Origin: Chiloscyllium plagiosum | Taxonomy: Eukaryota | Assembly (NCBI RefSeq): GCF_004010195.1 | Contig: NC_057718.1 | Coordinates: 85,228,580 to 85,292,579, forward strand | Length of the DNA stretch: 64,000 nucleotides | Reading direction: 5' to 3' | Shown here: piece by piece, positions 1 to 64,000 of the stretch | How the letters are laid out: every line of letters begins with the position of its first letter | How positions within the stretch are numbered: the stretch's first letter is position 1 | Made by a program: the position numbers and the translations under genes | The notes under the pieces: model-generated | Seen by the model: only the letters and a program-made list of their open reading frames with translations | Databases searched by the model: none | What the model was told of the DNA's origin: nothing

Positions 1-192
1 AAGAGCACAGCAGTTCAGGCAGCATCCAAGGAGCTTTGAAATCGACGTTTCGGGCAAAAGCCCTTTCCTGATGAAGGGCTTTTGCCCAAAACGTCGATTT
101 CGAAGCTCCTTGGATGCTGCCTGAACTGCTGTGCTCTTCCAGCACCACTAATCCAGAATCTGGTTTCCAGCATCTGCAGTCATTGTTTTTTA
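1..192. mobile_element. Fold-back (palindromic) PLE pseudo-LTR fragment, family 1, cut by the window edge
   Basis: Arms 1-65 and 74-138 are reverse complements with 2 mismatches. CTGATGA hammerhead core at 68-74 lies at the centre. Confidence 0.8.
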
Positions 193-10217: not shown

Positions 10218-10565
10218 TTCAAAGTTTGTACGAAGATTTGTAGCTCGGGTGCTCGTTGCTGTGGTTCTGTTCGCCGAGCTGGAAGTTTTTGTTGCAAACG
10301 TTTTGTCCCCTGGCTAGGCGACATCATCAGTGCTTGGGAGCCTCCTGCGAAGCGCTTCTTTGATGTTTCCTCCGGAAGTGGCAGAGACAGACCACTATGA
10401 ACACCGGAGAGACAACCGGAAGTGGCAGGGACAGACCACTATAAACACCGGAGGAAACATCAAAGAAGCGCTTCGCAGGAGGCTCCCAAGCACTTATGAT
10501 GTCGCCTAGCCAGGGGACGAAACGTTTGCAATAAAAACTTCCAGCTCGGTGAACGGAACCACAGC
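10218..10565. mobile_element. Fold-back PLE pseudo-LTR element, family 4, with 13-bp TSD
   Basis: Arms about 10256-10375 and 10448-10567 are near-perfect reverse complements. Direct repeat AAAGTACAGAAGG at 10205-10217 and 10566-10578. Confidence 0.85.
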
Positions 10566-10845
10566 AAAGTACAGAAGGCACTAGAAAATTTCAAGGATTA
10601 CAGTTATGGATAGAGGAGAGAAAAGGCTGTTTTCCTGAAAACAGAATTACTAACATGAGACATGATACAGAAGTTTAAATCAATGACCAGTTTACACTAG
10701 TAAAATTGCTTTTAATTTAGAGAAAAGCTGAAGGGTAGAAAACCAAAGGTCACAGATTTAAGGTGATGGAAAAGTAATCAGACTGGATGAGAAAAATAAA
10801 ATTTAAATAAGTTTAGATCTTTTAAAAAGAATTGGGGGGGGGGGA

Positions 10846-11999: not shown

Positions 12000-14680
12000 G
12001 TGGCCCTGTTGGTAAGGGATGATATTTAGTCCCTTGCGCGGGGGGACCTAGAATCATGGGATGTAGAGTCAGTATGGATAGAGCTCAGAAATTCTAAAGG
12101 TAGAAAGACCCTCTTGGGAGTTATCTACAGGCCCCCAAACAGTAGTATGGATGTAGAGTGTAAGTTGAATAAGGAGCTGAAATTGGCCTGTCGCAAAGAT
12201 GTTACTACAGTTGTTATTGGAGATTTCAACATGCAGGTAGACTGGGAGAATCAGGATGGTATTGGACCTCAAGAAAGAGACTTTGTGGAGTGCCTCTGAG
12301 ATGGATTCTTAGAACAGCTGTTGCTGGAGCCTCCCAGGGAGAAGGCAATTCTGAATCTGGTATTGTGCAACGAACCAGAATTGATCAGGGACCTCGAAGT
12401 GAAGGAGCCATTAGGAGGTAGTGACCATAATACAATAATGGTCAATCTGCAATTTGAAAGGGAGAGGGTACAATCGGTAGTGACAATATTTCAGTTGAAT
12501 AAAGGGAACTATGGAGCTGAGGGAGGAGCTGGCCAAAATTCAATGGTGCAATACCTTAGCAGGGATGACAGTGGAGGAACAATGGCAGATATTTCTGGGT
12601 ATGATACAGAAGATACAGGATCAGTTCATTCCAAAAAGAAAGATAGATCCTATGAGGAGGCAGAGGTGGCCGTGGCTGACGAGGGAAGTTAAGAAACATA
12701 TAAAGTTAAAAGAGAAAAAGTATAACATAACAAAGATGAGTGGGAAAACGGAAGACTGGGTAGCTTTTAAAGAACAACAGAGGATTACTAAGAAGGAAAT
12801 ACGCAGAGAAAAAATGAGGTACGAAGGTAAACTGGCCAAAAATATAAAGGAGGATAGTAAAAGCTTTTTTAGGTATGTGAAAGGGAAATAAATGGTTAAG
12901 ACTAAAATTGGGCCCTTGAAGACAGAAACAGGGGAATATATTACGGGGAACAAAGAAATGGCAGAAGAGTTGAATTGGTACTTCAGATTTGTGTTCACTG
13001 GGGAAGACACAAGCAATCTCCCAGAGGTAACAGTGGTTGAAGGACCTGAACTTAAGGGAATTTATATTTGCCAGGAATTGGTGTTGGAGAGACTGTTAGG
13101 TCTGAAGGTTGATAAATCCCTAGGGCCTGATGGTCTCCATCCCTGGGTACTGAAGGAGGTGGCTCAAGAAATCGTGGATGCGTTGGTGATTATTTTCCAG
13201 AGTTCGATAGATTCGGGATCAGTTCCTGTGGACTGGAGGGTGGCTAATGTTGTACCACCTTTTAAGAGAGGATCGAGAGAGAAAGCAGGAAATTATAGAC
13301 CAGTTAGTCTGACCTCAGTGGTGGGAAAGATGCTGGAGTCAATTATAAAGGATGAAATTATGACACATCTGGATAGCAGTAACAGGATAGGTCAGAGTCA
13401 GCATGGATTTATGAAGGGGAAATCATGCTTGACTAATCTCCTGGAACTTTTTGAGGATGTAACTCTGAAGATGGACAAGGGAGATCCAGTGGATGTAGTG
13501 TACCTGGACTTTCAGAAAACCTTTGATAAAGTCCCACATAGGAGGTTAGTGAGCAAAATTAGGGTGAATGGTATTGGGGGCAAAGTACTGACTTGGATTG
13601 AAAATTGGTTGGCTGACAGGAAACAAAGAGTAGTGATAAACGGCTCCCTTTCGGAATGGCAGGCGGTGACCAGTGGGGTACCGCAGGGATCAGTGCTGGG
13701 ACTGCAGCTTTTTACGATATATATTAATGATATAGAAGATGGTATTAATAGTAACATTAGCAAATTTGCTGATGATACAAAGCTGGGTGGCAGGGTGAAG
13801 TGTGAGGAGGATATTAGATTACAGGGTGACCTGGACAGGTTAGGTGAGTGGACAGATGCATGGCAGATGCAGTTTAATGTGGATAAATGTATGGTTATCC
13901 ACTTTGGTGGCAGGAACAGGAAGGAAGATTACTACCTAAATGGAGTCAAGTTAGGTAAAGGGACAGTACAAAGAGATCTGGGTGTTCTTGTACACCAGTC
14001 AATGAAGGCAAGCATGCAGGTATAGCAGGTAGTGAAGAAAGCGAATAGTATGCTGGCCTTCATAACAAGAGGGATTGAGTATAGAAGCAAAGAGGTTCTG
14101 CAGCTATACAGGGCCCTGGTGAGACCGCACCTGGAATATTGTGTGCAGTTTTGGTCTCCAAATTTGAGGAAAGACATTCTGGTTATTGAGGGAGTGCAGT
14201 GTAGGTTCACAAGGTCAACTCCTGGAATGGCAGGACTATCTTATGTTGAAAGATTGGAGCGACTGGGCTTGTATACCCTTGAGTTTAGAAGACTGAGAAG
14301 GGATCTGATTGAGACATAAGAATATTAGAGGATTGGACACTCTGGAGGCAGGAAACATGTTTCCGCTGATGGGTGAGTCCCAAACCAGAGGACACAGCTT
14401 AAAAATAAGGGGTAGGCCATTCAGGACAGATGAGGAGAAACATCTTCACCCAGAGACTGGTGGGTGTGTGGAATGTTCTGCCCCAGAAGGCAGTGGAGGC
14501 CCAGTCTGTGGACTCGTTTAAGAAAGAGTTGGATAGAGCTCTCAAGGATAGTGGAATCAAGGGTTATGGAGATAAGGCAGGAAAAGGATACTGATTGAGG
14601 ATGATCAACCATGATCATAATGAATGGTGGTGCAGGCTCGAAGGGCAGAATGGCCTACTCATGCACCTATTGTCTATTGT
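12000..14680 (+). mobile_element. 5'-truncated CR1-clade (HER1-like) LINE with EN and RT domains, disabled
   Basis: GVIYRPPN, IGDFN, GSDH (EN). ORF 12892-14025 has NYRPVSLTS, QHGF, YLDFQKTFDKV, GVPQGSVLG, FADD (RT). Several stops and frameshifts; (ctattgt)2 tail at about 14667-14680. Confidence 0.95.
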
Positions 14681-18518: not shown

Positions 18519-21298
18519 CTAAATAAAGAAACAAATGAATTTTACTTATATGGACTATCTGACTTATGACAACAGTTAGCTCAGATACTTATCAACTTTC
18601 AGTATGTTACACAGTCACTGCAAACAAGTTCAGAAGTTCATGTGGAGGATAGTATTTCATCTCAATATAAAGGGAGTACACCTGAAGAAATAATATCCTG
18701 CTTGTAATAGCTGAAACAACATTCACAGTATGACAGTATCATGAGATGAAAAATATTCTTGCAGCTGTAAATAATTAATGCACAAAAGTGAAAGACATAT
18801 GTTGAATAATTCAAAGCTTTTTGCTTTTGCTGCATACAAATTAAAATTCTGTGGCAACATTTCTGCTGCTCCTTCCCCTCTGGTAATCTTAATAGTCCTT
18901 CAATAATATTTAAAGAAAAAAATTGAACTTCTGATTTCTCCCCTCACTCTTGACAATTTCTTGCCCACCTGGATGTTAGAATGCTGCATGATTGTAAGCA
19001 TGTAAGCAGTGGTGGAAAATGTCTTTGCATTATTTAACTATAGAAAATGTTGCAGTGGAGTTCAAACATTTCCTCAACAATGTCCACAATGTATTTTCAT
19101 GCGTGAAAGCTGAGTATTAAAGGCTGACAAGTTCGCTTGCCTACAAGCCTGCATTTAAATAGCTGTGGAAATAATGGTTGCAATGAATTTAATCTGGTAT
19201 TCCAAGATTCTGGACAGGCCCCAAGGATTGAAAACTGCAAATGTAACATCTCTATTCAAGAGGCGAGGAAAACAGAAAGTTAGTCTGATATCTGTCATTA
19301 GCAATATGCTAGAATTTATTAAGGAACATTAAAAAATCAAACAGTGTCAACATGGTTTGGTGAAAAGGAAATGATGTCTAACAGATTTAAAATATTTGAA
19401 TATGTAACAAGCGGTATAGATGAGGGGAACCAGTAGATATAGTGTATTTGGATTTTCAAAACATCTGATAAGATACAAGGTTGCTTTATTGCTGCTAACA
19501 GGGAATAAAATAAAGATAAACAGGCCATTTTCAGGTAAACTGCAATTAATGGGGTGTCACAGAGATCAGTGCAGGATCTCAACTATTTACTGTCTATGTT
19601 AATGATGTCATTGAAGGGGCCAACTGTACTGCCAAACATTTAAGGTTACACAAACATAGAAACACCAAAAGTTTATGCAGAAGTAGGCCATTTGGTCCTT
19701 CAAGCTTGCTCTGCCATTCAATAAGGCTAATCTTCCAACTCAGTACAATGTTCCCATTTCTGTGCATATCCTTGATCCCTTTAGTACTTAGAATATATCT
19801 AAATCTTTCTCGAAAGTCTTCAGTGTTTTGGCCTCAACAGTTTCCTGTGGCAGAGAATTCCACAAGTGCACTACTTTCTGGGTGAAGAAATTTCTCATCT
19901 GTCCTAAACAGCCTAGCCTTATCTTCAAACTGTGACCCCTAGTTCCAATTCTCTTGTCATCCTTGTTGCATCTACCCTGTCCAACCCTGTTAGAATTCTA
20001 TACATTTCTATGAGATCCACACCTCTGCACCCCTCAACCCAATTTTTCTAAATTCTAGTGGATATAGTCCTAATCGATCTAGTCTCTCCCTGTACAGGAG
20101 TTCTGCCATCCCAAGAATTAGTCTACAAAACCTTCTTTGCACTCCTGTCAATCGCAAGAGCATCCTTTCTTAGACAAGGAGACCAAAACAGCGTACAATA
20201 TTGCAGGCATGGTCTGCCCTATACAGTGCAGCAAGACATCCCTGCTCCTGTTTTTGAATCTTCTTGCCACGAAAGCCAACATATTGTGTGCCTTCTTCGC
20301 TGACTGCACCTCCATGCTTACTTTCAATGACTGATGCACAAGGACACCCAGGTCTCATTGCACTATCTCCTTCCCCATATTACTGGCATTCAGATAATAA
20401 TTTGCCTGTCTATTTTTGCTACTATAGTCCATAACCTTACATTTACTCATATTTTGTCAATTTAGTTTACTTGTCCAAATAAGAGACGTCTCTGCATTCT
20501 CCTCAGAGCATACCCTCCACCCAACTTTGTCTCTTCTTCAAACTTGGAGATATTCCTCATTTAAATCATTAACATATATTGTGAACAGATTAAATATATA
20601 TTGTGAAAAGCGGAATTGCAAAAAAAAATCCCGTGGGACCCCACTATCCATTGCCTGCTGCTTGGAAAAAGGCCCTTAATTCCTATTGTTTCCTAGAGGT
20701 GTGGATCTCCAATCAGTTCTTAATCTATTTCAGTACATGACTTCCAAACCCATGCATTTTAATTTTGCATGCTAATCTTGTGTAGGACCTTATCAAAAGC
20801 CTTCTGAAAATCCAAGTAAACCCCATCCACTAACTGCCCTTATCCACTCTATTAGTTACATCCTCAAAAAATTACAGCAGATTTGTGAAGCACAACTTTC
20901 CCTTCGTAAATCCACGCTGACTGTACAATTTTATCATGATCTTCCAAGTGCTCTGCTATTACATATTTTACAATGGATTCTAGCATTCTTCTCACTACTG
21001 ATGTAAAGCTAACTGACCCATAATTTGCTGTTTTCTCTTTGCCTCCCTTCTTCAATAGTGGGGTTGCATTAGCAACCCTCCAATCCACAGGGACTGTTCC
21101 AGAGTCTGTAGAATTTTAGAAGATGACCACTAAAACATCTGCTATTTCTAGGGACACTTTTTAGTACTCTGGAATGAAGGTTATCAGGCCCTGGGTATTT
21201 ATCTACCTTGAAGTCCACTGGTTTCCCCAATAATATTTCCCTACAAATAATATTATTTTAAATTCCTCCTTCCCATTTGACCATGTGTTACCCATTAT

Positions 21299-22794: not shown

Positions 22795-23004
22795 GTCGAG
22801 AGTGTAGTGCTGGAAAAGAACAGCGAGCAGCAGGAGAATCGATGTTTTCGGGCATAAGCCCTTCATCAGGAATCCTGATGAAGAAGAACTTATGCTTGAA
22901 AAGTCTATTCTCCTGCTCCTTGGATGCTGCCTGACCTGCTCTGCTTTTCCAACAACTCACTCTCGACTCTGATCTCCAGCATCAGTAGTCCTCATTTTCT
23001 ACCG
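22795..23004. mobile_element. Fold-back PLE element, family 1, 11-bp TSD
   Basis: Inverted arms meet at tcatcagga-a-tcctgatga (about 22863-22881). TAGTATTCCCA at 22784-22794 and 23005-23015. Confidence 0.8.
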
Positions 23005-24252: not shown

Positions 24253-25065
24253 AGTCATAGAGATGTACAACATGGAAGCATACCCTTCGGTCCCGCTCGG
24301 TTATGCCGATTGGATATCCTAACCTAATCTAGTCCCATCTGTCAGCACTGGTCCATATCCCTCTAAACCCTCCCTATTCATATACCCATCCAAATACCTC
24401 TTAAATGTTGCAATTGTACCAGCCTCCACCACTTCCTCTGGCAGCTCATACATGCACCACCCTCTGCGTGAAAAAGTTACCACTTTTATATCTTTCCCCT
24501 CTCACCCTAAATCTGGACTTCTGGACTCCCCCAACCCAGAGACAAGATCTTGTCTATTTATCCTATCAATGCCCCTCATGATTTTATAAACCTCTATACG
24601 GTCACCCTCAGCCTCTGACGCTCCAGGGGAAACAGCCCCAGCCTGTTCAGCCTCTCCCTATAGCTCCCTGTTTTCCCTGGAGCGTCAGAGGTGGAGGAGT
24701 GATCTTATAGAGGTTTACAAAATTATGAGGGGCATGGATAGGGTAAATAGGCAAAGTCTTTTCCTTGGGGTCAGGAAGTCCAGAACTAGAGGGCATAATT
24801 TTAGGGGGAGGGGGGAAAGATATAAAAGAGACCTACAGGGCAACAGAGGATGGTACGTGTATGGAATGAGCTGCCAGAGGAAGTGGTGGAGGCTGGTATA
24901 ATTTCAACATTTAAGAGGCATTTGGATGGGTATATGAATAGGCAGGGTTTGGAGGGATATGGGCCAGGTGCTGGCAGGTGGGACTAGATTGGGTTGGGAT
25001 ATCTGGTCAGCATGGACGGGTTGGACCAAAGGGTCTGTTTCCGTGCTGTACATCTCTATGACTCT
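24253..25065. mobile_element. Two CR1 3' ends in head-to-head inverted orientation
   Basis: 24253-24665 (-) and 24668-25065 (+) are approximate reverse complements, each ending in a ctctatgact tail. Confidence 0.85.
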
Positions 25066-33937: not shown

Positions 33938-34510
33938 AAACGGTAACTCAGTAGTTCGCACTGCTGCATCACAGGTCCGGGGAGGCAGATTCGACTCCAG
34001 CCTTGGACAACTGTCTATGTGGAGTTTGCACATTCTCCCGGTGTCTGTGTGGGTTTCCTTCAGGTGCTCCAGTTCCCTTCCACAATCCAAAGATGTACAG
34101 GTTAGGGGAATTGGGCATGCTAAATTGCCTATAGTGTTCAGGATGAGAGAAAGTGAGGACTGCAGATGCTGGAGATCAGAGCTGAAAATGTGTTGCTGGA
34201 AAAGCGCAGCAGGTCAGGCAGCATCCAATGAACAGGAGAATCAATGTTTCGGGCATAAGCCCTTCTTCAGGAATGAGGAAAGTGTGTCCACCAGGCTAAG
34301 ATAAAAGATAGGGAGGAGGACTTGGGGGAGGGGCTTTGGAAATGCGATAGGTGGAGGGAGGTCAAGGTGAGGGCAGGATGTGTAGATTAGGTGCATTAGT
34401 TGGGGTGAATGTAGAGTAATAGGGTAGGGGAATGGGTCTGGGTGGGTTATTCCTCAGAGGTTCGGTGTGGATTTGTTGGGCCAAATGGCCTGTTTCCACA
34501 CTGTAGGGAA
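33938..34510 (+). mobile_element. HE1-type SINE interrupted by a PLE family-1 fragment (34146-34373, -)
   Basis: SINE halves rejoin across the insert; CAGGATG is duplicated at 34139-34145 and 34374-34380. Confidence 0.8.
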
Positions 34511-35446: not shown

Positions 35447-36230
35447 TTAGATTAGATTCCCTACAGTGTGGAAACAGGCCCTTCAGCCCAACAAGTCCAC
35501 ACCGACCCTCCGAAAAGTAACCTACCCGGACCCATTTCCCTCTGATTAATGCACTGAACACTATGGGAAAGTGAGGTCTGCAGACGCTGGAGATCAAAGC
35601 TGAAACTTTATTGCTGGAACAGCACAGCAGGTCAGGCAGCATCCAGGGAACAGAAGATTCGACGTTTCGGGCACATGCCCTTCTTCAGGAATGAGCAGAG
35701 AGTGTTCAGCAGGAGAAGATAAAAGGTAGGGAGGAGGGACTTGGAGGAGGGGCGTTGGAAATGTGATAGGTAGAAAGAGGTCAAGGTGAAGGTGATAGGT
35801 CGGAGTAGGGTGGAGGCGGAGAGGTCAAGAAGAAGACTGCAGGTCAGGAAGGCGGTGCCGGGCTGGAGGGATTCGGCTGAGACAAGGTGGGGGGAGGGGG
35901 GATGAAGAAACTGGTGAAGTCCAAGTTCATCCCCTGTGGTTGGAGGGTTCCCAGTCGGAAGATAAGACGCTCCTCCTCCGACCGTCGCGTTGTTGTGGTT
36001 TGGCGGTGGATGAGTCCAATGACCTGCACTATGAGCAATTTAGCATGGCCAATTCACCTGGCCTGTACACCTTTGGATTGTGGGAGGACACTGAAGCACC
36101 CAGAGGAAACCCACGCAGACACAGGGAGAACGTGCAAACGCCATACAGATAGTTGTCAGAGGCTGGAATCGGACCTGGGTCCCTGGTGCTGTGAAGCAGC
36201 AGTGCTAATCACTGAGCCACCATGCTGCCA
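35447..36230 (-). mobile_element. HE1-type SINE interrupted by a PLE family-1 3' fragment (35566-36026, -)
   Basis: CACTATG duplicated at 35559-35565 and 36027-36033. The insert encodes RRSEEERLIFRLGTLQPQGMNLDF (GIY-YIG C-terminus). Confidence 0.85.
35657..35692 (-). ncRNA. Intact minimal hammerhead ribozyme motif (family 1)
   Basis: Minus strand AUUC-CUGAAGA-A-GGGCAUGUGCCC-GAAA-CGUC-GAAU. 4-bp stem I, stem II, palindromic ACGU stem III and GUC cleavage triplet. Confidence 0.85.
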
Positions 36231-39568: not shown

Positions 39569-39776
39569 GTTGAGGAGAAAGTGAGGTCTGCAGATCAGAG
39601 CTGGAAATGTGTTGCTGGAAAAGCGCAGCAGGTCAGGCAGCATCCAGGGAACAGGAGAATCGACGTTTCGGGCATAAGCCCTTCCTGAAGTAGGGCTTAT
39701 GCCCGAAACGTCGATTCTCCTGTTCCCTGGATGCTGCCTGACCTGCTGCGCTTTTCCAGCAACACATTTCCAGCTC
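39569..39776. mobile_element. Fold-back PLE element, family 1, perfect 85-bp arms, 14-bp TSD
   Basis: 39598-39682 is the exact reverse complement of 39692-39776. GGATCTGTGAAATT at 39555-39568 and 39777-39790. Confidence 0.9.
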
Positions 39777-41383: not shown

Positions 41384-41737
41384 CGCCTCCTAGCAGAGCG
41401 CTTTAGGGAACATCTCCGAGACACCCGCACCAATCAACCAAACCGCCCCGTGGCCCAACATTTCAACTCCCCCTCCCACTCTGCCGAGGACATGGAGGTC
41501 CTGGGCCTCCTTCACCACCGCTCCCTCACCACCAGACGCCTGGAGGAAGAACACCTCATCTTCCGCCTCGGAACACTTCAACCCCAGGGCACCAATGTGG
41601 ACTTCAACTTATCTCTCCACGCTTCAGGCTCTCTGCCCTTATTCCTGATGAAGGGCTTTTGCCCGAAACGTCCATTTTTCTGAAGCTCCTCGATGCTGCC
41701 TGAATTGCTGTGCTCTTCCAGCACCATTGATCCAGAA
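41384..41737 (+). mobile_element. PLE family-1 3' fragment
   Basis: AQHFNSPSHS...RRLEEEHLIFRLGTLQPQGTNVDF; TTTGGACTGAA repeated at 41373-41383 and 41738-41748. Confidence 0.85.
41641..41675 (+). ncRNA. Minimal hammerhead motif (family 1), intact core, weakened stem I
   Basis: attc-CTGATGA-a-gggcttttgccc-GAAA-cGTC-cat. Confidence 0.7.
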
Positions 41738-41995
41738 TTTGGACTGAAGATGTTACACTTAGTCTTGACGCTGGACACTAATGAACAGTCACTGCTGGGA
41801 TTTTTTCAGCATGGGATACAATCCATTATAATGCCCTGAGGTCAAATAGCCTGACAAAAGGGCTATTTAAACTTGAATATTAATCAATGTCCAAAGAACT
41901 GATCTTCACTGGAAAGCAGGGTAAGGGAGGAAACCAGCAGGATTAAAAAATCTAAATGAATTAATCATAAGACTAAGTTATGGAGAAAAACTTAC

Positions 41996-48475: not shown

Positions 48476-48701
48476 CACAGAGTGTGGTGCTGGAAAAGCA
48501 CAGCTGGTCAGGCAGTATTTGATGAGCAGGAGAGTCGATGTTTTCAGCATAAGCTCTTCATCAGGAATTCAGAGTTCCTGATGAAGAGCTTATGCTCAAA
48601 ACATTGACTCTCCTGATCCTCAGATGCTGCCTGACCAGCTGTGCTTTTCCACACCACACACCGACTCTGATCTCCAGCATCTGTAGTCCTCATTTTCTCC
48701 T
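48476..48701. mobile_element. Fold-back PLE element, family 1, older copy, inside a CR1 remnant
   Basis: Arms about 48482-48567 and 48574-48659. 17-bp TSD with 2 mismatches (48459-48475 and 48702-48718). Confidence 0.8.
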
Positions 48702-50087: not shown

Positions 50088-50915
50088 TTGGTTTGTAAGT
50101 TTGTTTGCTAAGCTGATAGGTTTGTTCTCAAACATTTCATCACCATGCTAGGTAATATCATCAATGAGCATCCAATGAAGTGCTGGTGTTCTGCCCTGCT
50201 TTCCATTTGAGAGTCTTGGTCTGTTAAGGTGGGTGATATTCATTTCCGGTTTTTTTTCTCAGAGCTTGGTAAATGGGATCCAAACCAATGCGTTTATTGA
50301 TGGAGTTCCAGTTTGATAGTGATAGTAGGTCCTGTCTTTGAGTGGCTAGTTGGTGTTTGTGTATCCTGGTGGCTAGTTTTCTGTCTGTCTGATGAAGTGT
50401 TTGTTTCAGTCCTTGCAGGGTATTTTGTAAATGACATTCGTTTTGCTGGTTGTTGGTATAGAACCTTAAAGGATCTTACATCAGACTGTTAGTGTATCCT
50501 GGTGGCTAGTTTTCTGCCTAACAACAACCAGACACCAAAATACATGACCCACAATCACTAGGATCCTTACGTACAGACGAAGGAGGACACGACTTCAACT
50601 GGGACAACACATCCATCCTACAACAGGCTAAACAGAATCACGCACAGAAACTCCTAGAGGCATGGCATTCAAACCGGAACTCCATCAATAAACACACTGA
50701 TTTGGACTCCAGTTACCAACCTCAGAAAAAAAGCCGAAAATGATATCACCCACCTTAACAGACTTAGACACACAAATAGAAAGAGGGACAGAACACCAGT
50801 GCTTCATCAGAGGCTCACTGATGTTACTAGCATAGTGATGAAACATCGGAGAACAAATTACCAGCTCAGAGAGCAAACTTACAATCTGAACCTCAACCTG
50901 AGCTACAAATCTATT
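50088..50915. mobile_element. PLE family-4-like fragment with inverted arms
   Basis: About 50088-50310 is a diverged reverse complement of about 50670-50885. Related to 43010-43315 and 63000-63450. Confidence 0.7.
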
Positions 50916-52656: not shown

Positions 52657-52689
52657 CTGAGGAAGGGTCACTGAACCTGAAACGTTAAC
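52657..52689 (+). ncRNA. Minimal hammerhead motif (family 3)
   Basis: CTGAGGA-a-gggtcactgaacct-GAAA-cGTT-aac. Core intact; 5' stem I strand lost by truncation. Confidence 0.55.
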
Positions 52690-55089: not shown

Positions 55090-55990
55090 TCAGATAAATG
55101 TGAGGTAGTGTGTTTTGGTAAAGGAAATCAATACCGGACTTATACATTTAATCGTAGGAGCCTGGGGAGTCTGGCCAAACAAAGACCTTGGAGTGTGGGT
55201 TCTTAGTTCCTCGAAGGTCGAGTCACAGGTGGACAGGATAGTAAAGGTGGTGTTTGGCATTATTAGTCAGTGCATTGAGTATAGGAGTTGGGAGGTCATG
55301 TTGTGGCTGTACAGGACATTGGTTAGGCCACCTTTGGAATATTGCATTCAGTTCTGGTCCCCCTTCCAAAGGAAAGAAGTTGTTAAACTTAAAGAATGTG
55401 GCCAGTATTGGAGGGTTTGTGTTATAGGGGGGAGGCTGAATAGGCTGGGGCTGTACAGAACATTGGTGAGGACACTTTTGGAATACTGCGTTCAATTCTG
55501 GTCTCCTTGCTACAGGAAGGATGATGTGAAACTTGAAAGGGTTCAGAAAAGGATGTTGGAGGGTTTGAGCTGGAGGGAGAGGCTGAATATGCTGGGGCTG
55601 TTTCCCCATAAGCGTCAGAGGCTGAGGGGTGACCCTATACAGGTTTATAAAATCAAGGGGATCATGGACAGGATGAATAGCCAAGCTGTTTGCCCCAGTG
55701 TAAGGGACTCCAAAACTAGACGGGAAAGATATTAAAGGAACCTAAGAACCACTTTTTTCACCTAGAGGGTGGTACATGTCTGGAATGAGCTGCCAGAGGA
55801 ACAGGTGGATGCTGGTACAATTACATTGTACAAGTACAACATTTAAAAGGCATCTGGATGGCTATATGAATAGGAAGAGTTTAGAGGAGTATGGGCAAAA
55901 TGCTGGAAAATGGGACTGAATTAATTTAAGATATCTGGTCGGCATGGACGGGTTGGACCGAAGGATCTGTTTCCTTGCTGTACAACTCCG
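55090..55990 (+). mobile_element. CR1 LINE 3' fragment with internal tandem duplication
   Basis: ORF 55115-55735 contains LYRTLVR..LEYC.QFWSP twice. Confidence 0.85.
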
Positions 55991-56419
55991 AGATGCGCAG
56001 CATGGAAACAGACCCATCAGTCCAACTCATCTATGTCAACCCTCAGCAACCTTTGAATATTTTCAAAGCAGAGGTAGGTAGCGCTTGATAAGCATGGGGT
56101 GGGGGATCCAAGTTGGCAGCGATCTAAGAGGTCTGCTTTGCTGAGCTCTGCACCTCAGTCCAGGCAAAGTCGCACTTTCACCTCCCCACTTAAATCATTT
56201 CTATGATAAGCAAGGGGTGAAACATCATCAGGGTAAGTAGAAATATAGTCAGATCAACCAGGATCCTTTTTAGGGTGCAGAAGCTTCGAGGGACAAGGGA
56301 CCTACACTTTATTCCTAATGTAGATGCTCACAAAATTGTCGGTTTCACGTACCAGTACCAATTCATCATTCAATCAACACAGTCTGCAAATAATCCAAAG
56401 TTAACCTATTGTCCTTAGT

Positions 56420-61135: not shown

Positions 61136-61795
61136 ACTTAAATTCTAATAATCAAATAAATCTGGAATAAGCAGCCAGCAACAGTTTAGTGATTATAAAA
61201 CTAGTGAACAGTCATGAAAATTACATCTGATTCACTTAATGTCCTTAAAGTAAAGGAATCCGTCAGCCTTGTGCAGTCTGCCCTGTATCACCTGCAGCGA
61301 TGTGGTTCACTCAAACTGTATCAAATCTCAATTTTAAAAAATCAAATATAATAAAACCAAATGAACCAGCTAGAATCATTCTAGATAGGATAAAGGCAAA
61401 AGTAATCCAGTTGATTATATAAAGTGCACCTCACGTCTGGGGACTTGTATCGAATTTAGTGACAGACAACTCAAGTGACAGTCATACACCATATTTATAC
61501 GTTTCGTACAACTTCCCAGACATCTCTAGCAATACCTTGTCCCACTGGCAGGATAGATCTATCAGAAGTAGCATTGCGTATAATCATGTGCAACTGAGAG
61601 TGGGAAATACTGGGAGTCCTCAACATTGAGTCTGGATCTCGTGAAGTCCCATGATATCACATTAAGCTTAAATCAGGAAACATGCTGATTTCACCTACTA
61701 CCCTCCCTCAGCTGATACTCCATGTTGAACCCCAGGTGGAAGCAGCAAGTATCTAGGATGGACATGACCATCATCATGGACATGAAATTCTAAGT

Positions 61796-62013
61796 GGCGA
61801 AAGTGAGGTCTACAGATGCTGGAGATCAGAGCTGAAAATGTGTTGCTGGAACAGCGCAGGTCAGGCAGCATCCAGGGAACAGGAGAATTGATGTTTCGGG
61901 CATAAGCCCTTCTTCAGGATTCCTGAAGAAGGGCTTATGCCCGAAACATCAATTCTCCTGTTCCCTGGATGCTGCCTGACCTGCTGCGCTGTTCCAGCAA
62001 CACATTTTCAGCT
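61796..62013. mobile_element. Fold-back PLE element, family 1, ~90-bp arms, 14-bp TSD
   Basis: 61830-61919 is the reverse complement of 61921-62013 apart from one 3-nt indel. ATGAAATTCTAAGT at 61782-61795 and 62014-62027. Confidence 0.9.
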
Positions 62014-62424
62014 ATGAAATTCTAAGTCTACATTGAGGACATCCTTTAATGTGACACTATCAGCATGCTAATTGGATTGATTCAGAACCGATATACTACC
62101 TCAACATTGGGAAATCAGGACAGTTTGCTATTTCACTATATTCAACCACAATCCATAAACAACTTCACTCACTCTGATACCACCATCAAATCAGGGTACT
62201 GAACCCTGGTTCAAAAAGAAACGTAGTGAGGATGCTAGGAGCATGTGTGATACATATATTATAAATCCAATTCTCTTTTCAATATTACTGCGTTGAATCT
62301 GCGTCCTCCATCTCTTCAACCAGTTCATTTCAAATCATTATGCCAGCTGCATAAGACCTTTCACTTCATTACTCCTGCTTCTTTTCCCAAAATACCTTCA
62401 ATTTGTCCCCTCTTTTGTAATAAT

Positions 62425-63450: not shown

Positions 63451-63711
63451 CCCTTGATCTGTCCCTTCTGGTTATCGACCGTCCTGCCAGTCTAAACAGC
63501 TTCGGATTATTTACTACTTTAAAACCTAGTATACCAGCGAACATCCCTATTAAATTTCCTTTTATTCTAGTCAAAGAACAATGAAGCTGCTATATATAAT
63601 CTCGCTACGAAACTCAAATCCCTTAACCTTGGTCTTCTTCTAGCACAGAATTGGACGTAGACAACATTCTGGCCGACATCTAACCAAAAATTCATAATTT
63701 GGAGGTTAGAA

Positions 63712-64000
63712 TGGGGTGGGCAAAGTTAAAAATCAGGTAATAGCCCAAAGGCTTATTTGCAAGTACAAACTTTCAGAGTGCTGCTCCTTCATCAGGTAGT
63801 TGTGAAGTGGGATCATAAGGCAGAATTTATAGCAAAGGATTACAGTGTCATACAACTGAAATGATATATTGAAAAATCTAGATTTTTGTTAAGTCTCTCA
63901 TCTTTTAGAATGGATTACAGGTTTCACTTCATTAATATGTAAATCCCAGAACTTCTTTTAAGTCACATTCTCAAGATAAGTTAAGGTTTTATTTTAGAAA
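63712..64000 (-). mobile_element. PLE family-2 pseudo-LTR running off the window
   Basis: Similar to 37125-37400; minus-strand CTGATGAaggagcagcactctGAAA at about 63770-63795. Confidence 0.7.

Follow-up and report, generated by a model that had tools for sequence, protein, structure and literature searches.

In Chiloscyllium plagiosum, the short hammerhead-bearing palindromes belong to a Penelope-like element (PLE), of which they are short insertions, with no separate hairpin element involved. Each palindrome is probably a stub formed de novo by an autonomous PLE, in which both nicked target strands likely prime reverse transcriptase (RT) on the front end of the element RNA and the two cDNAs likely run to, or toward, its capped 5′ end. 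The kind of PLE insertion is known; the stub form is a new, testable read-out of its mechanism. The focal copy and several relatives lie in a stretch of 64,000 nucleotides of contig NC_057718.1, referred to below as the window (Table 1). In the numbering of the pseudo-LTR (pLTR), +1 is the first base of the hammerhead CTGA, and the predicted cut follows +28.

Table 1. Features of the focal insert and related copies, in window coordinates
Feature	Position	Strand	Remarks
Left target site duplication (TSD), 14 bp, ATGAAATTCTAAGT	61782-61795	.	Identical to 62014-62027
Right TSD, ATGAAATTCTAAGT	62014-62027	.	Identical to 61782-61795
Tailed arm, pLTR about -2 to +124	61796-61919	-	Tail at about 61796-61829; distal RT start site as the putative priming site of the cDNA
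Tail-less arm, pLTR -4 to +91	61919-62013	+	Putative transcription start A(-4) at its beginning; cDNA putatively primed at the proximal RT start site
Junction GA	61918-61919	+	Left-arm C(-1)T(-2) overlaps right-arm G(-5)A(-4)
Minimal hammerhead motif	61919-61954	+	CTGAAGA, 61923-61929; helix II, 61931-61942; GAAA, 61943-61946; predicted cut after 61950; descriptor from PMC4209133
Sister palindrome	22795-23004	.	TSD of 11 bp; junction class as in the focal copy; one tailed arm
Sister palindrome	39569-39776	.	TSD of 14 bp; junction at a TTC/GAA microhomology; one tailed arm
Older sister palindrome	48476-48701	.	TSD of 17 bp with 2 mismatches; filler bases at the center; one tailed arm
Right end of a 2.76-kb insertion of another subfamily	1-192	.	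Insertion has its own 14-bp TSD; interior unreadable
Monomer	34147-34373	-	Runs ~100 nt upstream of the stop site
Monomer	35567-36020	-	Runs ~330 nt upstream of the hammerhead
Monomer	41393-41742	+	Preceded by open frame AERFREHLRD..EEEHLIFRLGT; no Pfam match on 70 aa
Second, unrelated hammerhead family	2436-2620 (motif 2504)		TATAAA box, two 3′ ends, inverted pairs, TSDs
Second, unrelated hammerhead family	63700-63810 (motif 63795)		As above

The arms derive from a Penelope-like element

A full-length copy (L045) consists of a pLTR, a tail, an ORF, and a second pLTR, with an inverted arm outside and a single TSD enclosing everything. Because full-length copies show the order pLTR, tail, ORF, the arm can be identified as the segment directly before the ORF, as in the Anolis Poseidon element PAc. 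The pLTRs before and after the ORF carry a minimal hammerhead whose core bases are invariant in 12 aligned motifs, and the optional 30- to 40-nt tail, the inverted 5′-truncated copy, and the TSD are all present. Upstream, the arms run into an RT frame with a YIDD motif (a Pfam RVT_1 match at E = 0.0017, which falls short of the curated cut-off), and downstream they run into the ORF, in line with the PLE origin suggested in the preliminary description. From its motifs, the RT may be of the PLE type and may belong to a Neptune-like clade. The palindromes lack an ORF, as had been observed earlier, but their arms are the pLTR segment leading into the ORF of full-length copies. The tail plus the next seven source bases match 978 and 328 places. 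No sequence common to the region downstream of the arms was found among 287 arms, and the full-length copies were recovered through long TSD-flanked pairs.

Junctions are formed at each insertion

An exact pattern spanning both arms at the palindrome center matched 5,953 loci in the 3.56-Gb genome, and a reversed-pattern control matched none. Arms were measured in a sample of seven fetched blocks (1.4 Mb) plus the window, 1.42 Mb of readable sequence, with block positions that are arbitrary rather than random. The sample holds 320 arms, comprising 62 short head-to-head pairs, 195 scored monomers, and one arm dropped at a block edge; extrapolation puts the number of short pairs in the genome at roughly 150,000. 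TSDs of at least 10 bp, with a mode of 14 to 15 bp, flank 42/62 sampled pairs and 22/25 young pairs, compared with 0/500 swapped controls. Of the five palindromes listed earlier in the window, the four complete ones are real, each with its own TSD of 11 to 17 bp as stated, whereas the one at 1-192 is the end of a longer insertion. We consider the chance of an assembly or amplification artefact negligible: no independent contig spans a whole palindrome, but the young pairs have TSDs, the arms are asymmetric and have diverged from one another, one inversion joint is present in 4 raw RNA reads, and contigs of 52 to 54 nt span the center in 3/4 other runs, which is weak evidence at fewer than 31 nt per side.

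About 30 of the first 50 center-pattern loci listed fall into six recurring junction classes (counted by hand), and the common classes sit at microhomologies of 1 to 3 nt (TTC/GAA, AT, GA). The earlier statement that the center differs in every copy thus does not hold; the copies at 22795 and 61796 share CAGG/ATTCCTG (tail-less arm). Identical classes are present in the TGAAG and TGATG subfamilies, and one subfamily variant, GGGCTAATGCCC, was found with four different junctions. The short pairs span 83 to 276 bp, and 15 further TSD-flanked inverted insertions of 263 to 5,194 bp make the sizes continuous up to 5 kb. With several junctions in one subfamily and the same junctions in different ones, the junctions are formed de novo at each insertion, as the preliminary description had favored.

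The preliminary description had also raised a discrete hairpin element mobilized in trans. A palindromic master of this type would be in keeping with the high copy number, the modal size near 200 bp, and the recurring centers, but it is very improbable in view of the four junctions of a single variant, the center classes common to two subfamilies, and the continuum of sizes; by analogy with PAc, whose template needs the ORF-start region (PMC11167929), the palindromes would also lack a necessary part. Furthermore, the partner arm was not closer than the best other arm in 32/39 comparisons (closer in 5/39, equal in 2/39). A SINE- or MITE-like master copy was rejected on the same variation within subfamilies, recurrence across them, and size continuum. 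General gene conversion between arms is unsupported, with the partner closer in only 5 cases, in a test that is biased against partners.

The two arms fit two primings rather than a fold-back

The number of tails per pair is strongly constrained. One arm is tailed and the other is not in 55/62 sampled pairs, two tails were found in 2, and none in 5; this extends to the sample what had been described for the four complete copies. Among monomers, 91/195 have a tail, and the excess of one-tail pairs is significant against an expectation of 50% (p = 2e-10). The tail-less arm reaches further 5′ in 35/55 pairs, the tailed arm in 10/55, and the two tie in 10/55 (p = 2.5e-4). Since a folded-back cDNA cannot outreach its own template, the 35 pairs with the longer tail-less arm need two cDNAs. 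This asymmetry fits twin priming at two internal RT start sites, although in 20/55 pairs the tailed arm reaches equally far or further, which counts against it. Three pairs have a tailed arm that stops at +85 to +97, the position of the second start site, as in L1 twin priming, which favors one shared RNA. A T follows the tail in 60/92 arms (30% background), matching the RNA, suggesting that priming uses slight homology.

According to the preliminary description, the arms turn around at the hammerhead edge, which is true of at least one arm in most pairs (49/62, ending within -10 to +4 of the C of CTGA), but both arms end there (-10 to +11) in only 29/62. The former count is what one would expect if RT stalled at the folded ribozyme and the cDNA then folded back, as had been suggested; the TTC/GAA quasi-palindromes at this position yield frequent junctions, and the arm lengths are compatible with fold-back in 20/55 pairs. 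However, fold-back of a tail-primed cDNA cannot make the tail-less arm the longer one, and a tail-less cDNA is unable to template a tail. An RT enters the helices from their 3′ side and is already past them at -4, and helix I, with 2 to 3 possible pairs, does not form in structure prediction. Monomers, which lack an inversion, share the stop position, and a stall leaves the nongenomic G described below unexplained. Stalling with fold-back is largely refuted by the arm asymmetry, and we regard it as highly unlikely.

A published hypothesis derives head-to-head inversions, with their palindromic junctions, from self-priming on an antisense transcript (Arkhipova et al. 2013), and antisense reads are present in our RNA data. 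Self-priming of this kind does not predict one tailed and one tail-less arm, the same end in monomers and ORF-bearing copies, or a sense-strand G located 32 nt after a sense TATA box (see below), and PAc is reported to prime on sense RNA in vitro (PMC11167929). For the present families, we therefore attach very little probability to it and retain twin priming.

The stop site carries an extra G

The stop is not specific to palindromes. Among monomers, 51/195 of the 5′ ends fall at -10 to -1, compared with 34 over the next 109 upstream positions; a few of the 51 are artefacts, belonging to subfamilies whose upstream sequence is absent from the references, or border unreadable stretches. The same stop ends 8/31 of the copies that continue into the ORF (counted by hand). 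No pile-up of ends was found at the cleavage site (+29), where only 2/195 monomers end, and the turn-around lies about 30 nt upstream of that site, as had been noted. The paucity of cleavage-site ends, together with the head-to-head rather than direct tandem arrangement, also led us to reject a non-LTR retrozyme.

Genome-wide, among young arms that reach A(-4), the base before it is the templated C in 21,626 cases and another base in 6,796 (same prefix filter). The non-C base is G in 3,935/6,796 (58%), compared with 25% expected from base composition. Among 100 matches listed, 12 of the 59 with G belong to one junction class in which the other arm could supply the G, and 47/88 have G when this class is left out. 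One base further upstream, there is no excess (about 23 G versus 22 A among 100 listed, 10 of the G attributable to arm microhomology; counted by hand). In monomers with resolved TSDs, the G is absent from the target at 4 loci and shared with the target at 6 loci (5 distinct targets), and the non-G monomers are joined mostly through microhomology. Older subfamilies have a weaker G excess (53 G versus 47 A, 40% expected, p = 0.007). Untemplated G residues at the 5′ ends of L1 and SVA have been read as cap copying (PMC4859970). Given the G excess and the same G in an unrelated family (see below), the stop is most likely the 5′ end of a capped RNA just before the ribozyme, not a ribozyme stall or cut.

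In this first family, TTATC lies 28 to 32 nt before A(-4) in 43/66 reference copies; as a TATA box, this upstream motif is poor, and 19/66 references lack it. An acceptor-like YAG is located 13 to 21 nt upstream of the stop and could be the acceptor of a D. virilis-type intron. Roughly one in two young arms extends beyond the stop, and 75/100 listed are intact upstream; read-through RNA is thus also copied, as it should be if initiation takes place in the downstream pLTR. The RNA reads are uninformative either way, since they derive from both strands, track genomic copy number, and contain no start pile-up or splice joint; one of the two raw runs contributed no aligned reads.

A second hammerhead family has the same G

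An unrelated hammerhead family with a TATAAA box and an anatomy like that of the first (Table 1) allowed an independent test. TATAAA lies 32 nt before an A in 5/8 TATA-bearing copies, and a G before that A was predicted beforehand. G was found in 66/100 non-C junctions listed (p = 1.5e-17, counted by hand); of the 22 T among the same 100, 16 are intact copies with a point change.

The second family also bears on two related alternatives that leave twin priming unchanged, namely, that the stop reflects a processed RNA end without a cap, to which RT added a C, or that it is a cut made at ATT by the element's endonuclease. The addition of untemplated bases by RTs, which takes place at any blunt end, counts for the uncapped end. 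The YAG just upstream of the stop could be read in the same way, and the PAc endonuclease is reported to prefer 5′-ATT-3′ in its own pLTR (PMC11167929), the trinucleotide at which the first family stops. On the other hand, the second family stops at ACA/ACT, at the stated distance from TATAAA, a DNA cut would add no G, and no ATT consensus was apparent by eye at the TSD ends. We consider these alternatives unlikely and favor a capped 5′ end.

The focal insert

On folding, the focal insert forms one long hairpin (z = -24.6), and none of 200 shuffles folded equally well. Its hammerhead has decayed: ACGT has become ACAT and G+29 has become A, in both arms alike, and the ACGU palindrome is lost. 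Helix II is the only hammerhead helix to form in structure prediction, and an Rfam search returned no hammerhead match and only sub-threshold matches to microRNA-type hairpins. The 2-nt GA overlap at the junction requires an extra G, because the element has C at -5. We infer that in this copy and in the copy at 22795, the overlap exists only because the tail-less cDNA ended in an extra C, the G being read as a cap copy. Independent DNA contigs contained no empty-site joint, and none spanned the locus. The insert is an ordinary dead stub, and its annotation as a MITE, a microRNA precursor, or a new ribozyme element is unwarranted.

A model for stub formation

The transcription start would be A(-4), with which helix I of the hammerhead begins, and would have the initiator-like context TCA(+1)TTCC. 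Judging from the TSDs and from PAc biochemistry, the endonuclease would nick both target strands about 14 to 15 nt apart. One 3′ end would then prime near +90 and the second near +124, the template for both probably being a single RNA; this would give the observed pattern of a tail-less and a tailed arm. Because these start sites also lie about 95 to 130 nt from the RNA 5′ end, each priming could produce a short cDNA with a cap-derived C at its end, comparable to a strong-stop product. Of the two, the cDNA primed at the tail would usually trail and stop earlier. Repair would presumably join the two cDNA 3′ ends via the 1- to 3-nt microhomologies, often with the cap-derived C, to leave a head-to-head palindrome between TSDs. 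A dimer geometry, the single RNA, and strand displacement are conjectural parts of the scheme. The hammerhead would be a passenger, and the template would be uncut RNA.

A broader proposal can be put forward tentatively, at somewhat less than even confidence. PLE insertion may be intrinsically double-primed, with a dimer placing the two internal start sites of one RNA on the two nicked strands, such that one rule gives tails, inverted copies, and palindromes. In two unrelated families, the capped mRNA would begin with the hammerhead, which would take up its first 30 nt; ribozyme cleavage would decap the RNA and might serve as an off-switch rather than to make the template. Stubs would then constitute a fossil record, akin to strong-stop products, from which PLE promoters could be mapped using genome sequence alone.

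Relation to known systems

Inverted pLTR copies, tails, TSDs, minimal hammerheads, and opposite-strand pairs have already been described. EN+ PLE units likewise have a pLTR with a hammerhead, an inverted 5′ copy, a tail at one end, a TSD, and a palindromic junction, and their inverted copies have been explained by antisense self-priming or endonuclease resolution (PMC3846280, PMC8557442). In contrast to the units as described in those reports, both halves here are often only the ~95- to 130-nt front segment, in the large copy number estimated above, and the breakpoints map to one site with a G signature. Metazoan PLE minimal hammerheads have the same CUGANGA-A-helix II-GAAA organization with a palindromic ACGU, and opposite-strand hammerhead pairs 100 to 700 bp apart have been noted, with no mechanism given for them (PMC4209133). 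In Drosophila virilis Penelope, a 75-nt intron extends to helix I, and the start is reported to lie 46 nt upstream of this intron (PMC2377424, PMC4209133), whereas the putative start here is at helix I itself. Non-LTR retrozymes are also short, noncoding, hammerhead-bearing, and PLE derived (PMC7229834, bioRxiv 10.64898/2026.07.22.740005), but they are described as direct tandem repeats whose processing takes place at the cleavage site, whereas the stubs are inverted and monomers rarely end there.

The closest experimental counterpart is PAc, for which TPRT in vitro involves two internal start sites, cutting and extension of both strands, a predicted dimer, and an uncut RNA template (PMC11167929). 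As in the stubs, the two RT start sites bound the tail, and a hammerhead lies at the ORF start (PMC11167929). The main text of that study does not address inversions or 5′ ends and reports no primer-template homology (PMC11167929), whereas here a T commonly follows the tail. How PLE tandem and inverted structures form and what the hammerhead does are treated as open questions in PMC8557442 and PMC11167929, and the arm asymmetry and G signature make both questions accessible to specific in vitro tests in the existing system. The same two features speak against antisense self-priming in these families, and the G signature offers a route to PLE start sites from genomes.

L1 inversions are non-overlapping, and their second priming sites are scattered. 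The stubs differ from L1 in that their priming sites are fixed 34 nt apart and their arms overlap, which needs strand displacement. The two systems are alike in that both target strands prime, microhomology joins the products, and an extra G is found at full-length 5′ ends (PMC4859970); L1 twin priming itself was proposed by Ostertag and Kazazian (2001, as cited in PMC4859970). Searches of the open literature, mostly at the level of titles and abstracts, found no report of PLE twin priming, a cap-derived G, or start-site mapping of this type, which closed papers, Repbase notes, or the PAc supplements may hold.

Mini-tandems and other repeats

In the series of loci L143 to L202, 31/60 run on into the ORF. 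Most of these are mini-tandems composed of an arm, a tail, 50 to 310 nt of the ORF start, a jump to the pLTR, and a second arm. One mini-tandem junction (ORF about +139 to pLTR about -76, unit about 340 nt) occurs 35 times genome-wide, across pLTR variants. Mini-tandems keep the ORF-start region and are better candidates than the palindromes for a non-autonomous, retrozyme-like element. The jump junctions cluster near pLTR -68 to -77 (L145, L152, L158, L163, L169, L190, L191, and L202), possibly marking a second RNA start. Several other copies end 100 to 150 nt inside the ORF and possibly represent a third class of 3′ end. The tail end of source copies (e.g., L045:781-812) has a run of branch point, pyrimidines, and TAG shortly 5′ of a conserved ATG, resembling a 3′ splice site; no splice donor was seen in the arm, and the RNA reads contained no joint to this acceptor-like TAG.

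Elsewhere in the window, the open frame preceding the monomer at 41393-41742 may, from its motif, correspond to the C-terminal half of the GIY-YIG domain of a PLE; in the sampled copies, much of the ORF was unreadable. Hammerhead-like motifs of further repeat families are located at 52657, 28954, and 6848, and two RT-like LINE remnants (12891-14665 and 19676-21209) lie on opposite strands and are 65% alike. Other repeat families contain head-to-head inversions at 24253-25063, 10256-10567, 50093-50884, and 55937-56041, which possibly arose by the same process or by L1-type twin priming.
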